Shown in pieces: positions 21,043-27,262 of a stretch of 64,000 nt of DNA. This DNA is from Pirellulales bacterium. GTDB taxonomy: Bacteria; Planctomycetota; Planctomycetia; Pirellulales; PALSA-1355. The notes under the pieces were generated by a model. It searched no databases. It saw nothing but the letters and a program-made list of their open reading frames with translations, and was not told where the DNA came from. The stretch is from contig CAVTBU010000004.1 of the NCBI GenBank assembly GCA_963733035.1, positions 1 through 64,000 of the forward strand, in the 5' to 3' direction. The translations under genes and the position numbers were made by a program. Numbering within the stretch: the stretch's first letter is position 1; each line of letters starts with the position of its first letter.

Positions 21043-21370
21043 CCTCCCCGTAGGGAAGCCTTTTCGAACCGCTTCGCGTGAGCGCGCTTTCCGAAGGCGC
21101 ATATTGCAGCGACCGGCCGAGGTGCGAAAAGTTTCGGAGTCAGTCTCGCCTAGGCGGTTTGCTCAAGACCTAACGCCGTGCAGCCTGAAGTCAGCCAGGC
21201 TTCGGTCGGTTGGGATTCTGTCGCTCGCTGGCGGTGCGCGCCGGTGTCTCGAATTGGCAATTCTGAACCGAGATTTCGGACGCACGCTGCGACTGATGGC
21301 TCGAGAATCAGGGCACAACTACGCTCGACTAGAGGCAAACTGGCTGTGGCAACATATTTGTGCAGAGCGG
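21043..21370 (+). mobile_element. Unit U7: non-autonomous derivative
   Basis: CCTCCCCGTAGGGAAG...RLGGLLKT...TTTGTGCAGAGCGG; same short architecture as U2. Confidence 0.8.
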
Positions 21371-23532
21371 CCGATGCGCTTACGAAAGCGACGAACAGCG
21401 ACCGGAGCGACAACTGTCGCGGCCAAGCCGAGCAGGACAAACGTCGCCGGTTCAGGAACCGTGCGGACGCCCACGATTGTGCCGCTGAGGCTGACCGTTC
21501 CCACAAGACCATTGACGTCGAGCGGAAACGCGGCATTGATCGGCAGCGTCAAGGTTTCGGTGATGCCGGAGACTGAAAGATTGCCGATAGCCGAAGCATC
21601 GGGTGCCGATTGCCCTGCCAGAGGTGTCGTCCCCATCAGCGAAGCACCAAGCACGACCGCGTTATAGTCGAGGTCGCCTGCGGTGATTCCCAGCACATAT
21701 CCGGTGGCATCGAAATCACCGGTGCCACCGATCGTTGAAGGGCCACCGCTAACGTCAAACAGAATGTTGCGAAACGCGGCAGTACCACTGGCAAGACCGC
21801 CAAGCGTGAAGCCGTAGTCAGCGTCGGCCGACCCGTCACGGCCGCCTACAATCGGCTGCCAGGTGCCATTTACAAGAGCGTTCAGCGCTGCGCTTGTCAG
21901 CGAGATGGAGCCTCCCGACAGGTCACCGCTGATTGTTCCCTGGTAGTTTGTTTGATCGGCTCCAGGCCCCTGGGGCACGAGCGTCACGATGTCGTTGGGA
22001 AAGGTAGTCGTGACCTGAATGTAGGATGCTGACGAATCGACATTCCACGAGACCATGCCTGCCGTAGCTGAGGGGGCGTTTAGAGCGACGCCGAATAGCG
22101 CGACGAGAAGCAGAACTTTGCCATTCACAAGCGATGCCCTTATGGCCGTAACAGAGCGGCAGGGCAACAGGGGTCCAAAACTTAGAGCACGACGCAGGCG
22201 GGAGGTCGCTGTCATCATGACGCGCCTCCCGGACACAAGCTGGCGTCCTCCAAAAGTTGCATTGCGACAGCGCATGGACGTCTTGAGCCGTCCGAGCAAA
22301 CTCCAAGGGCTATGCGGTCGCCGCAGAGTGATTAGCAACAAGGCCGATAGCCCAAGTACGATCGATGCGGGCTCGGGCACGACGGTGACTTGCAACGTCG
22401 CAGTGACCGGGAAGTGGTCGGAGGGATAAAGCCCGTTATACGACGTGTGTACGATCTGGGCGGCTGTGGCCGTGAATGTCGACGCGTCGTAAAAAATGTG
22501 ATCGATTGAAGCACCATACTGGTCTCCGGTAAAATGGTGAGACGTCGACTCGTCGACGCCGATCGTGGGATATACGTTCCGATAGGCATCGGTGAGCTTA
22601 AAGCCGCTGGCGATGCTGCCATCGAGCGTCTGCAGGCTAGAACTTTCGAGTTCCGCGTTGAAGTCGCCGATCACCAACACCGGCAGCCCGCCCGCGAGCT
22701 GGCTGATCTGGTCGCGCATGAGCGTGGCCGACTCGTCCCGGGCCAGCGAATCGAGCGACCAGTGCGTGTCGACGGTAAAATACGTCTGGTGGCTTTGATT
22801 GTCGTTCAGCTTGATCCAGGACACCATGCGCGGATTGCTGGTGTCGGTCCCGGTTCCGTAGAACGTCGTCCCAGGCACGGTCGGAGTATCGCTCAGCCAG
22901 AAGTCTCCATGCCCTAGGTCGGTGAAACGAGAGGTCAAATAGAAAATGCCATTCGTCTCGCCGCTGTTACTGCCGTTGCCGCCGCGCCCTTGCCCGTAAT
23001 ACGTGTATCCGGGGAGAGCGGCCTTCAAGTCATTGACCTGGTTGGGCAGCCCTTCCTGCTCTCCCAGGATGTCCGGCGCGTAGCTGGTAATCTTGTCGAT
23101 GGCTTTGTCGCGGCGATCGCCGGTAAAGATTACTGATTTGTCCGTGACCCAACTGTTGGGGGACAATTGATTCGTGGCGTCGTCTTCCTTGATGTTGAAT
23201 GTCATGACGTTCAGATCCGCGGTCCCGGCCTGCGCCAGTGTGCCGGCCAACAAGACCGTGGCCGGCCCCGCCCATGAGAGGACGAGATTTGCAAGGCGGG
23301 AGGAATGATCACGGTGGGGCCATCGATTCCTGACCGGGGCCCCGCCCCCGCCGGCGCTTGAACGATCCGAACGCAGCCACGCTCGCCGCCACCGAAATAG
23401 GAAGGCCCCAGGCGCTGGCTGCGGCACCTCCAACCGGTCGAATGAAGCACGACCCGTTACGTTGCGATCTTGGGCCAATGGCAGTCTCAGAGATTCCCTG
23501 AGCCGAAAAATGGCCGCGCCGGCCAGCAACAC
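21319..23532 (-). CDS. Fused ORF: endonuclease/exonuclease/phosphatase (EEP) domain + PEP-CTERM, then a second PEP-CTERM protein (possible own GTG start at 22128)
   Basis: VMTFNI, GEQE, GDFN, IDHIF and SDHFPV motifs; two VPEP-TM-basic signals; the stop lies inside U7. Confidence 0.75.
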   Translation of the reverse strand: MLLAGAAIFRLRESLRLPLAQDRNVTGRASFDRLEVPQPAPGAFLFRWRRAWLRSDRSSAGGGGAPVRNRWPHRDHSSRLANLVLSWAGPATVLLAGTLAQAGTADLNVMTFNIKEDDATNQLSPNSWVTDKSVIFTGDRRDKAIDKITSYAPDILGEQEGLPNQVNDLKAALPGYTYYGQGRGGNGSNSGETNGIFYLTSRFTDLGHGDFWLSDTPTVPGTTFYGTGTDTSNPRMVSWIKLNDNQSHQTYFTVDTHWSLDSLARDESATLMRDQISQLAGGLPVLVIGDFNAELESSSLQTLDGSIASGFKLTDAYRNVYPTIGVDESTSHHFTGDQYGASIDHIFYDASTFTATAAQIVHTSYNGLYPSDHFPVTATLQVTVVPEPASIVLGLSALLLITLRRPHSPWSLLGRLKTSMRCRNATFGGRQLVSGRRVMMTATSRLRRALSFGPLLPCRSVTAIRASLVNGKVLLLVALFGVALNAPSATAGMVSWNVDSSASYIQVTTTFPNDIVTLVPQGPGADQTNYQGTISGDLSGGSISLTSAALNALVNGTWQPIVGGRDGSADADYGFTLGGLASGTAAFRNILFDVSGGPSTIGGTGDFDATGYVLGITAGDLDYNAVVLGASLMGTTPLAGQSAPDASAIGNLSVSGITETLTLPINAAFPLDVNGLVGTVSLSGTIVGVRTVPEPATFVLLGLAATVVAPVAVRRFRKRIGRSAQICCHSQFASSRA

Positions 23533-24490
23533 CAGCGCGGGCGCCTTCGCCGCAATGCGACCAGCAGCAGAGTCAGCCCGCCAGCGCCGGCCAGCACGGC
23601 CGTGCCGGGCTCAGGGACACTTGCCACGCGGAACCCGATTTCGTCGTACCCCTGCGTCGGGTATAAGGTGTAGGTGTAGTACCCGCGGGCCAGGGTGTCG
23701 TAGGTGCCGTTCCACGCGCCACCACGCGCAGCTAAGCCGTCTTCGTTCCATTGAAAGACGTCGCCTCCCATGTCGTACGCGCCGTAGGGGCTGGCTGAGC
23801 CCGTGTACGCTCCCACATCGGTTAAATAGCTCTGATTGGGGTCATAGGGCATCGAGGGGCCCGTAAGGGAGAAGCCCGTTGAATTGCTGAAGAAGTTCGC
23901 AGTGTTGGGCGTGCTGCCTGGAGGCGCGGAGGTCGGCGCTGTGTTGCTGGAAAATGGGTATTGGTAATACGAGCTCGTGGCCGGGTCGTAGTACGCCGCC
24001 TTGTCCCATTCATGTTGGCTGGGGATGTAGACGGTGGCGAACGGACTGCGTTGGACTTCGAGCAGTGCAAGGTCGGTGTTCGCTCCGTTGAGGGCGTACG
24101 CACCCGTTTCCGTAGTGCCCGGGCCTTCGGCTCCGGTTGGCTGGCCGTTTTGCAGCCAGTTGCAGAAGCGGGCCGCGTCGACCCAACTCACGTAGGTGAT
24201 CGGCAGATTCGCCGAATTGCCGATCACGCTGTAGGTGTAGCTGCCCGAGGAGCCGCTGCGCAATACCGGCAATGTTGAGGTCCGTGCCCATCGGCGGGTA
24301 GTACAGCCCGTACGTATCGGTGGCCGCCACGGCGTTCAGGAACTCAGTGTACTGGGCGACCGTGACATCGTACTTGTCGATGCTGTAATTGTAGGGGACC
24401 GAGCCGTAGCCGGCGTTGCCCACCGGCACCCAATCGATCGTGACGGCCAAAGCGGGGGAAGCGAACGCGCACAGGGCCGTGCAGCCCAGG
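23487..24490 (-). CDS. FGE-sulfatase/PEP-CTERM unit 2, frameshifted near 24260, translated as a continuation of the upstream ORF
   Basis: VTIDWVPVGNAG in one frame and EWDKAAY...GFRVASVPEP in another; a GC dinucleotide is missing relative to paralogues. Confidence 0.75.
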
Positions 24491-25593
24491 AACGCCAACG
24501 CGCGGCGCCTTCGCCGCAGAACAACCAGCAGCAAGGCCAGCCCGCCAGCGCCGGCCAGCACTGCCGTGCCTGGCTCAGGGACGCTGGCCACGCGGAACCC
24601 AATGCCGAAGCTCTCGTCCCCCGGGTTGTAGGAATCCCGCCATGAGGAGGCCGAGGTGTTCGAGCCGTAGCTATACGAACCACCCCGCATGACCTTATTA
24701 TCCCCGTTTCTGGTTTCGGTCCACTGCCACACGTCGCCTCCCATGTCGAACGCGCCATAGGGGCTGGCCGAGCCTGTGTACGCCCCCACATTGGTCAGGT
24801 AAGGTGGGCCCGCTACGGCGTAGTCGCTGCCATAAAAATTGCCTGTGTCGGGCGTGCTGCCTGGTGGCGCCGAAGTCGGGAGCGTGTTGCTCGAAAACGG
24901 ATATTGATAGTAAGCTCCCGCGCCGCTGTTGAGCGTCGGGTCGTAGTAGGCTGCCTTGTACCACTCGTTCTCGTTGGGAAGGAAGATCGTGGCGTCGGCG
25001 TTGCGTGTGATGGTCCGCAGCAAGATATCGTTAGTGATACCGTTGAGCGTGTACGCGCCGGTTTCGGTCGTGCCCGGGCCTTCCGCTCCTGTTGGCTGGC
25101 CGTTTTGCAGCCAGTTGGCAAACCGAACCGCGTTGCCCCAACTCGCGTACGTAACCGGAAAATTGGCCGAGTTGCCGATCACGCTGTAGGTGTAGCTTCC
25201 CGAGGAGCCGCTTTGGGCGATGCCCGCAATGTCTGCGTCCGTGGCCATATTGCCGTAGTAGAGCCCGTACGGGTCGGCCTTCGCGACGGAGTTGAGGAAC
25301 TCGGTGTACTGACCGACCGTGACGTCGTACTTATCGATGTTGTAGTCGTAGGCCACGGCGCCGTAGCGGGAGGACGTGTTCGGATCGGCCGCATTGCCGG
25401 CATTGCCCACGGGTGCCCAATCGATCGTGACAGCGGAGGCAGGTAACGCGAAAACGCACGCAAACGTGTAGGCCAGCCAGACCAAAGCGCGGCGCCTTTG
25501 CCGCAGAGCAATCGGTGAGGGCTGCAGAGCCGGCTTCCGTGGTGGGATGGTCATGCCTTTTAGCAAGGCGGAATGAGCAAGGACGAGGTCCAT
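24490..25593 (-). CDS. FGE-sulfatase/PEP-CTERM unit 1 (no stop; runs into the signal peptide of unit 2)
   Basis: Start overlaps the GH99 stop (TAATG); complete FGE motifs; VPEP-TM-RRRRR. Confidence 0.8.
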
Positions 25594-26849
25594 TAGAAGC
25601 CTTCCTTTCTTTGTCGAGAAACATGCCGATGCCCAACCGCCACTTGTCTCAGCAATACGGCCAGCACAATCAAACAGCTACCTGCCAATAACAGTTGACT
25701 GCTTGTCGGCTCCGGAACGGTGGCCGTGCGCAGCTCGTTGAGGTAAAGATCGCCGTATCCCGGGTACGAGTATCCCTGCGTCAACGTTCCCGAGGCGTCG
25801 TCGGCGCTGGTCGGAGCGGCCAGGTTCGTGGGCTCGATTTGCGTGTCCTCGTGCCACTCGTTGAACGAGTTAACCATCAGGATATTTGCAGCCGCCGGAT
25901 CGAGGTTGGGCAGCGCGGCGCGATTGAGCTCGTCGGCAAACAACGATCCCTCGGCCGAGCCAGGGACATCGGTCTCGTAGCGCGGCGCGGCCGCGTGGCC
26001 CGAGCGGACCGCCGCGTCGTTGAAACCCGGCGAGACCGTGGGAATGAACCCGATATTGTCCGCGTGCGCCATTTGAGCGGCCGCCTGGTATTGACTGGCC
26101 AGCTCGGTCACGGCGGCCGTCGTCGAACCAAGACCTCCTAGCGCGCTTCCGTAGACGTCGAAGTCGGTGATCGCGTCCCACAATCCCGCCCGCTGGGCGT
26201 CGTTCTGGCCGGGAAACACGTCGTCGCCGATCAAGTAGGGATCGACGCCGAACTGCTGCTCCATCGCTTGGCGCAGGTCCGCGACCGCCTGCTGTCCGCC
26301 CGGACCGTTGAAGTAGGCCCGCGTGAGATACATGAACACGACCGGGCGCCCGTCGATTTGCAGGTAATTGGGATTGTTGAAATAGTCCTGCGCCAGGTAT
26401 TGAAAGTCGGGGATCAGGTTCGTGTAGTTGGGGCGGCTGAAGCTTCCCAGCCGTCCGGTGGACTCGTAGTGGATCGCGTATTTCAGTTCGCCGGCGCGCG
26501 GATCGGTCAACACGTAGTCCTGCAACGTCGTATCTTCGGCCGAACCTGACCCCCACCAGCTCGTGGCCCAAAAGCTGATGTTCGCCTGGTGGCTGGCGTC
26601 GATCTGCGACTCGATGGCCGCGCTGCTGCGGCTGCTGTAGTAGCCCTGCGCGGGCGACTGCTGCGGCGCCAGGTTCTCGCGCAGCGTCTGCGTCCAGCTA
26701 TGGCCGCCTGGGTACGGTCCGTACCACGGATAGTAATAGGCTCCTACGAGGGGAGCCGCCTGCGCGCGGATGCCCGACAAAGCCAGGCAGGCAATAAAGC
26801 CCAGCGCGAGGAGTCGTGCGGCAAGCGGACGAAACGCGATCTTCAACAT
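25593..26849 (-). CDS. Glycoside hydrolase family 99-like protein with PEP-CTERM
   Basis: AYYYPWY, SWWG, IDGRPVVF, VSPGFND and NSFNEWHEDTQIEP motifs; VPEP tail. Confidence 0.8.
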   Translation of the reverse strand: MLKIAFRPLAARLLALGFIACLALSGIRAQAAPLVGAYYYPWYGPYPGGHSWTQTLRENLAPQQSPAQGYYSSRSSAAIESQIDASHQANISFWATSWWGSGSAEDTTLQDYVLTDPRAGELKYAIHYESTGRLGSFSRPNYTNLIPDFQYLAQDYFNNPNYLQIDGRPVVFMYLTRAYFNGPGGQQAVADLRQAMEQQFGVDPYLIGDDVFPGQNDAQRAGLWDAITDFDVYGSALGGLGSTTAAVTELASQYQAAAQMAHADNIGFIPTVSPGFNDAAVRSGHAAAPRYETDVPGSAEGSLFADELNRAALPNLDPAAANILMVNSFNEWHEDTQIEPTNLAAPTSADDASGTLTQGYSYPGYGDLYLNELRTATVPEPTSSQLLLAGSCLIVLAVLLRQVAVGHRHVSRQRKEGF

Positions 26850-27262
26850 GGCTAGCAACTACGCGAGGATTTCCCCGTCCTTTCTTTTTTGAGAGACGAG
26901 ACGTTCGCCAGGACCGAGAAGGAAATGCTTCTGTGCCTGTCGACGACCGATCTGCGATTGAATGAAAGGGTAATGTTCTTGTGTGCAGGGCCGTCAGCCG
27001 GGCTCGTCCGCAAATTCAACCGGCTACCATTCAATGCGTGAAAGCCTTCCCCCTTGCACCGACTTTTTTGAGAATTGCCGCCAGGAACGAACTGGACGGG
27101 CGTCCTGAGGTGCTGCCCGGCTCCGCGGCACACTCGCCGGGCTCAGAGGTTTGGAAGGCGCGAAACGTCGCTTTGCGCGGGACTTCCAAGAAAGACGAAA
27201 CCGGCGGAGTCCTGGTTTACAATGGTGCCTTAAGGTCAGTCTGTTCCGGCGGTCCATTGAAG

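Follow-up and report, generated by a model that had tools for sequence, protein, structure and literature searches.

The fused reading frame described here is located on the minus strand of the window, which is the opening 64 kb of contig 4 in the genome of a Pirellulales bacterium (G000; 6.6 Mb, 10 contigs, 60% G+C, completeness 92%, contamination 2.9%). Its open reading frame (ORF), 24010-25593, was translated with table 11 into 527 amino acids and encodes, in order, a signal peptide, FGE-like domain 1, a full PEP-CTERM sorting tag, a second signal-peptide core, and FGE-like domain 2. This in-frame fusion of two paralogous exported proteins (hereafter units 1 and 2), each composed of an FGE-fold domain and its own PEP-CTERM tag, is genuine. 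The product is probably, with considerable reservation, a secreted polyprotein that would be cut by exosortase and signal peptidase.

Domain 1 ends with ...FRVAS and is followed by VPEPGTAVLAGAGGLALLLVVLRRRRR, then by ALAFLGCTALCAFASPALA, and then by VTIDW, which opens the second FGE-like domain. Between tag 1 and the second signal-peptide core both a stop codon and a Met are absent, and the Leu behind RRRRRA is encoded by TTG. Signal peptide 1 is long and N-terminal and reads ...LRQRRRALVWLAYTFACVFALPASA into mature VTIDW. An earlier note on this DNA had quoted the junction string, which was matched exactly by the table 11 translation of window:24010-25593; the translation also agreed with its description of a tail-to-signal stretch with a TTG and without a stop or Met, and of a first signal peptide that reads into VTIDW. 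Units 1 and 2 could be aligned over their full length, signal peptide included, with a mean column identity of 83% at the DNA level.

According to the proposed mechanism, signal peptide 1 would carry unit 1 over the inner membrane by the Sec route, and the PEP-CTERM helix would then halt transfer so that the five Arg stay in the cytoplasm. That Arg cluster would double as n-region for the following signal-peptide core; re-entry of this core into the membrane would start the export of unit 2, and a hairpin would be formed by the two helices and the Arg loop. Unit 1 would be cut by exosortase at the PEP motif and the chain would be cut by signal peptidase I after ALA, releasing two mature proteins as separate molecules, along with a small hairpin peptide.

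Recurrence of the junction and its predicted cleavage

A 151-amino-acid query centred on the junction was compared to 401 genomes of the order and returned 330 matches, 150 of which were listed and counted by eye. At least 29 of the 149 non-self matches listed span tag to signal peptide without a stop, and these are distributed over at least 15 other genomes; one listed match contains a stop. Individual genomes other than G000 are denoted below by the handles G024, G257, G127, and G020. The possibility raised in the earlier note, that no other genome has this architecture, can therefore be set aside. Examination was extended to 40 internal junctions in 19 loci. Single ORFs with several units include one of 2427 amino acids with seven PEP-CTERM and six FGE stretches by Pfam (G127 contig 75, L081), one of 1505 amino acids with six units on a 6.75-Mb contig, one of 1243 amino acids with four units, and one of 2458+ amino acids with five units and three domain types (FGE, two Kelch propellers, and two pentapeptide/dockerin proteins). 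The tags of the 2427-amino-acid ORF also gave a weak match to the VPDSG-CTERM profile.

Among 8000 scored public proteins, 831 were longer proteins at E ≤ 1e-10, and the best 120 of these 831 were examined. Internal tags were present in 59 of the best 120 longer homologues, with 83 junctions in total, and a hydrophobic 10-mer (mean Kyte-Doolittle (KD) value ≥ 2.0) followed within 40 amino acids of the tag at 79 of them. Multi-unit chains of this kind are annotated as single proteins by gene callers and NCBI and are named as SUMF1/EgtB/PvdO family enzymes.

Within the 6.6-Mb genome itself, 119 PEP-CTERM-like motifs were detected using a regular expression (regex). Fewer than 10 residues follow the basic cluster in 95 of these and no more than 58 in 114, and the other five, this junction included, are followed by 164-338 in-frame residues that lead into another exported protein. 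Stand-alone FGE paralogues of this genome have normal ends, and their N-terminal signal peptides are in the same register before VTIDW. The fusion exceeds chance, since few tags run on and the continuation here encodes a homologous in-frame domain.

Small residues occupy positions -3 and -1 before mature VTI... in 29/33 internal and 24/28 N-terminal signal peptides (public family members), so the predicted cleavage site is kept equally well at both positions. Both enzymes are encoded in the genome, with two exosortase genes (PF09721, 215 and 195 bits) and a signal peptidase I (89 bits).

Reading frame, start codons and alternative readings

Alignment of the two copies placed a 2-nucleotide (nt) shortfall of copy 2 relative to copy 1 in a GC dinucleotide repeat at ~24258-24261 (alignment columns 317-318). 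This 2-nt gap shifts the frame, and the 527-amino-acid ORF therefore closes on out-of-frame residues at 24010; the remainder of unit 2, including tag 2 and a 17-residue tail, is located in ORF 23487-24272. Parts of the stretch were represented in public data by only three soil-metagenome runs from one study, as low-depth contigs (shares 0.13, 0.09, and 0.08), and no RNA dataset was listed for it. A 348-nt metagenome contig (run X1, depth 4) is identical over 24076-24421 (346 nt) except for a "GC" added behind 24257, exactly the two bases that put unit 2 into the frame of unit 1. Given these two frame-restoring bases, we infer that an intact two-unit ORF of ~700 codons exists in nature; the 2-nt slip stems either from strain variation or from an error in the assembly.

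The frameshift in the assembly is also what would be expected of a decaying tandem copy. This alternative, which we consider unlikely, treats the fusion as a tolerated accident, in which loss of the stop would be costless since exosortase removes everything after the PEP motif, and unit 2 as a dying pseudogene. It is favoured further by a 10-residue deletion near the N-terminus of unit 2 and a divergent C-terminal part relative to the paralogues, by a tail behind tag 2 that resembles a degraded further junction, by the unit 1 orthologue in G024 being a normal stand-alone gene, and by the remarks of Haft et al. 2006 on long-tailed tags, which suggested that these are possibly non-functional (PMC1569441). 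Against decay, both pieces of unit 2 are open over ~1 kb save for the 2-nt slip, the otherwise identical metagenome contig has an intact frame, and across the class cleavage motifs and long multi-unit frames are maintained, which is unlike decay.

Start codons were surveyed across 41 junctions (the 40 above and the window's own), 37 of which had a clear hydrophobic region (h-region); the loop was taken from the first basic residue to the h-region and had a median length of 9 residues. It is rather improbable that units 1 and 2 are two genes in one frame, with unit 2 made mainly from its own start (the loop TTG or a helix TTG/GTG) and the read-through product degraded or irrelevant. An own start could be provided at the window junction by one in-frame TTG in the loop, the sole start-type codon there, or by two start-type codons in the helix, and ATG is present in the loop at 4/37 junctions (for example in G020 and on G000 contig 8). 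Most loops speak against it: ATG, GTG, and TTG are all absent from 21 of the 37, only GTG/TTG are present in 12, and at 6/37 junctions a start-type codon is absent from loop and helix alike. Initiation at the loop TTG of the window junction would moreover yield a signal peptide lacking a basic n-region, and ribosomes that translate unit 1 encounter no stop and must go on, therefore the fused chain must be made.

A false join of paralogous genes at near-identical PEP-CTERM stretches is very improbable as the source of the stop-less junction. In its favour, the tags of copies 1 and 2 are ~90% identical over ~80 nt, no identical read or contig spans 24440-24560 in the three soil-metagenome runs, and the assembly is 2 nt off a metagenome contig nearby. 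Against it, the independent genome G257 matches the junction all the way from VPEP, across the signal peptide, to the FGE domain, many other assemblies have this layout, some of them on multi-megabase contigs, and for a mis-join in an assembly of 10 contigs the stretch in common is short and imperfect. Separately, one contig ~90% like copy 1 jumps from 25431 to 24502, with a shorter side of 40 letters; it hints at a similar junction in a relative and is too weak to use.

Several points weigh against a cleaved polyprotein at this locus. With unit 2 frameshifted as assembled, unit 1 and a truncated product would be expected, and the frame-restoring evidence is one contig at depth 4. The absence of identical contigs over the junction, the TTG in its loop together with the two start-type codons in its helix, and the published suggestion on long-tailed tags count on the same side. 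The locus is known here from DNA alone, the Pfam PEP-CTERM score is just below the cut-off, and the internal signal peptide was called by inspection and homology. The junctions counted above are not independent, several arrays being recent tandem copies (for example six in G127).

A chain that forms a hairpin in the membrane and is cut on either side of it is favoured because the frame is free of stops, start codons are scarce, the cleavage site is kept, and both enzymes are present. The hairpin cut into two proteins that the earlier note proposed thus has comparative support (recurrent stop-less junctions, few starts, kept -3/-1 residues, both enzymes) rather than experimental support. Its description of the products as "two anchored proteins" is not established, given that exosortase substrates lose the helix and that unit 2 is frameshifted in the assembly.

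Parts, origin and neighbourhood of the locus

All parts of the two units are on the minus strand. Signal peptide 1, which has RQRRR as its n-region, a hydrophobic core, and ASA ahead of mature VTIDW, occupies 25432..25593 together with the N-terminal extension, as determined by translation, paralogue register, and the G024 orthologue; signal peptide 1 has the position of the N-terminal signal peptides in stand-alone paralogues, and the G024 orthologue carries the same one. Mature unit 1, FGE-sulfatase-like domain 1 (24583..25431), was matched by PF03781 with E 7e-26 and 91.8 bits (cut-off 23.3). FGE-sulfatase-like domain 2 of unit 2 (23619..24444), the frame of which is broken near 24258 in the assembly, was matched with E 1e-16 and 61.8 bits for its downstream piece. 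Mature domain 1 (residues 55-337) contains zero cysteines, and its nearest PDB match by sequence is EgtB only, which is distant (E 7e-4). The mature domain belongs to the FGE fold family; because FGE catalysis needs a cysteine pair, it is not a canonical FGE and is probably a binding domain rather than an enzyme.

Internal PEP-CTERM tag 1 (24502..24582; translation, PF07589, TIGR02595) consists of VPEP, an 18-residue hydrophobic helix, and five Arg at residues 338-364 of the ORF. This is the layout of the PEP-CTERM motif, in which the hydrophobic helix measures at least ~14 residues, and it is repeated in copy 2. Tag 2 (23541..23618) is composed of VPEP, a helix, and four Arg, and the DNA of the two tags is identical at 26-27 of 30 positions per bin. 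PF07589 was matched at residues 337-362 of 527 with 18.6 bits and at tag 2 with 18.9 bits, relative to a cut-off of 20.7; TIGR02595 (NCBIfam) scored 17 vs a cut-off of 16, with no stretch separately significant. PEP-CTERM tags are expected to lie within ~10 residues of the C-terminus, in genomes with an exosortase and many tagged paralogues. The two PF09721 and 119 regex matches agree with the latter; tag 1 departs from the former and is followed by 164 in-frame residues as assembled, or by ~340 if the 2-nt slip is bridged, and tag 2 by 17.

The internal signal-peptide core (24445..24501) comprises an h-region and a c-region that ends in ALA, was identified by homology to signal peptide 1, and would borrow its n-region, the five Arg, from the tag. 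The whole reads RRRRR, then ALAFLGCTALCAF, then ASPALA before VTIDW, in agreement with the n-, h-, and c-regions of Sec signal peptides, and the best hydrophobic 10-mer of its h-region has a mean KD of 2.17. It begins at ORF residue 365 without a Met rather than at an N-terminus. The last part, a 17-codon tail and stop behind tag 2 (23487..23540), resembles the start of the junction signal peptide with a 1-nt indel (alignment columns 1060-1100) and is probably the remnant of a further junction.

The origin of the junction was traced by comparison with two relatives. The G024 orthologue of unit 1, 93% identical, has a DNA identity of ~97% to unit 1 up to the VPEPGTAV codons, after which identity collapses. 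From VPEP on, the window junction is identical at 21-28 of 30 positions per bin to one in G257, which belongs to another genus of the family, through the helix, RRRRR, the signal peptide, and the FGE start; the upstream unit of the G257 junction is unrelated. Because it is shared with G257, the segment of hairpin and unit 2 start predates the split of these genera, and on this comparison it is inherited, not newly made. Unit 1 would have been joined to this segment, or an old partner swapped, by recombination within the conserved PEP-coding stretch. The earlier note had placed the recombination between the similar RRRAL-coding stretches; the G024 and G257 comparisons move the breakpoint to the PEP motif, and the RRRAL-coding stretch was rejected as the present join site since similarity switches directly after VPEPGTAV.

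At up to 5 mismatches, the RRRAL-coding 27-mer is present in the whole genome only at the junction and in signal peptide 1, and a third copy with a 1-nt indel is located behind tag 2. This suggests that signal peptides of the junction type gave rise to all three copies and that there used to be a further unit behind tag 2. Unit 2 as a whole was considered as an orthologue of the G257 unit, and this was rejected: G257 is the closest match (75%) for the junction and the first ~60 residues only, and the remaining part is about as close to a paralogue in the window as to G257 (62.6% vs 61.5%).

In G024, the closest relative, both unit 2 and the next gene lack a counterpart, and synteny with it cannot show an ancestral junction; on G024 contig 42 (L010 1-1140) a transposase-like ORF comes after the unit 1 orthologue, and synteny stops there. 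In its PEP-CTERM helix the G024 orthologue is similar to a different paralogue, located on G000 contig 5 (L005), and the tail of this paralogue (RRRYRALVLP...) again looks like a signal-peptide start. It seems that tags pass from one paralogue to another as cassettes.

The next ORF downstream, 21319-23532 (minus), is another stop-less fusion and one of the five long-running tags. It encodes an endonuclease/exonuclease/phosphatase domain with a PEP-CTERM tag, a spacer of ~75 residues with two ATG, a signal peptide, and a second PEP-CTERM protein; the phosphatase-type protein has its own signal peptide, with no ATG nearby upstream. At 23505-23545 (minus) the tail of tag 2 is 1 nt out of frame with this ORF, which opens, in the other frame of the tail stretch, with a hydrophobic stretch homologous to the junction signal peptide. 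The 23505-23545 stretch can also form a 10-pair hairpin followed by a T run; a promoter and terminator scan found no excess over shuffles (1 vs 1.4; 6 vs 5.1). Three further in-frame tag-to-signal fusions are located in G000 at contig 8:1-1599 (L007), contig 7 ~481799-483952, and contig 8 ~498120-499568, and in one of those on contig 8 an unknown, unrelated domain is fused to an FGE paralogue by a junction that contains a Met. Upstream, the neighbour at 25593-26858 (minus) encodes a GH99-like glycoside hydrolase that carries a PEP-CTERM tag of its own and also adjoins the unit 1 orthologue in G024.

Significance and comparison with known systems

PEP-CTERM tags are annotated as strictly C-terminal, and internal tags have been set aside as probably non-functional. 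The arrays described above raise a wider proposal, to which we give an even chance: that PEP-CTERM bacteria, Planctomycetes included, routinely make secreted polyproteins of two to seven or more units, which would be split at standard tag-signal hairpins by exosortase and signal peptidase I and co-exported in equimolar amounts, with the PEP-coding stretch acting as a recombination joint that shuffles units between arrays. Each such hairpin would run from the PEP motif and helix through the Arg loop to an h-region and AxA. If true, this would be a natural bacterial route for exporting several surface proteins from one frame, a mode known mainly from viral and a few membrane polyproteins, and many "giant" Planctomycetota proteins with SUMF1/EgtB/PvdO names would each consist of several separate exported proteins strung together. 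An Arg cluster that doubles as anchor and as signal n-region would account for the tolerance of such genes to losing the stop codon between them, and a recombination joint at the PEP motif would explain the fast turnover of the family. No description of PEP-CTERM-to-signal-peptide polyproteins was found in the literature, subscription journals and supplements being outside the search.

Membrane polyproteins resolved by signal peptidase include the Bradyrhizobium FbcH cytochrome b/c1 precursor and the flavivirus glycoprotein precursors. The bunyavirus glycoprotein precursors belong to the same kind (compare PMC7926653, PMC4974537). The likeness is in the order of parts, in which a transmembrane segment is followed by an internal signal sequence and signal peptidase frees the next protein; these precursors differ in that they are not known to use a sorting-tag protease across the hairpin or to form arrays of exported surface proteins.

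An internal sorting tag has been described in MXAN_5598 of Myxococcus xanthus, where an internal MYXO-CTERM was attributed to a probable gene fusion in the account given by Guo, Haft and Wall 2025 (PMC11980579). That protein differs in its tag and its protease (myxosortase) and is a single case without multi-unit arrays, and a following signal peptide or cleavage is not discussed in the passages on it (PMC11980579). The same passages state that sorting tags function when internal for LPXTG and PGF-CTERM, with reference to the constructs of Navarre and Schneewind 1994 and Abdul Halim et al. 2017 (as cited in PMC11980579). As described there, these constructs are alike in that sortase-type tags are recognised away from the chain end, and differ in being engineered, not natural polyproteins, with no second signal peptide involved.

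The canonical PEP-CTERM/exosortase (EpsH, Xrt) substrates are also close counterparts. The passages of Haft et al. 2006 on tag position place the PEP-CTERM tag at the extreme C-terminus, with fewer than 10 further residues in 87% (PMC1569441). The fused chain is like these substrates in its N-terminal signal peptide, PEP motif, helix, and Arg cluster and in being encoded in a genome with two exosortases, and unlike them in that a whole second exported protein continues in frame.

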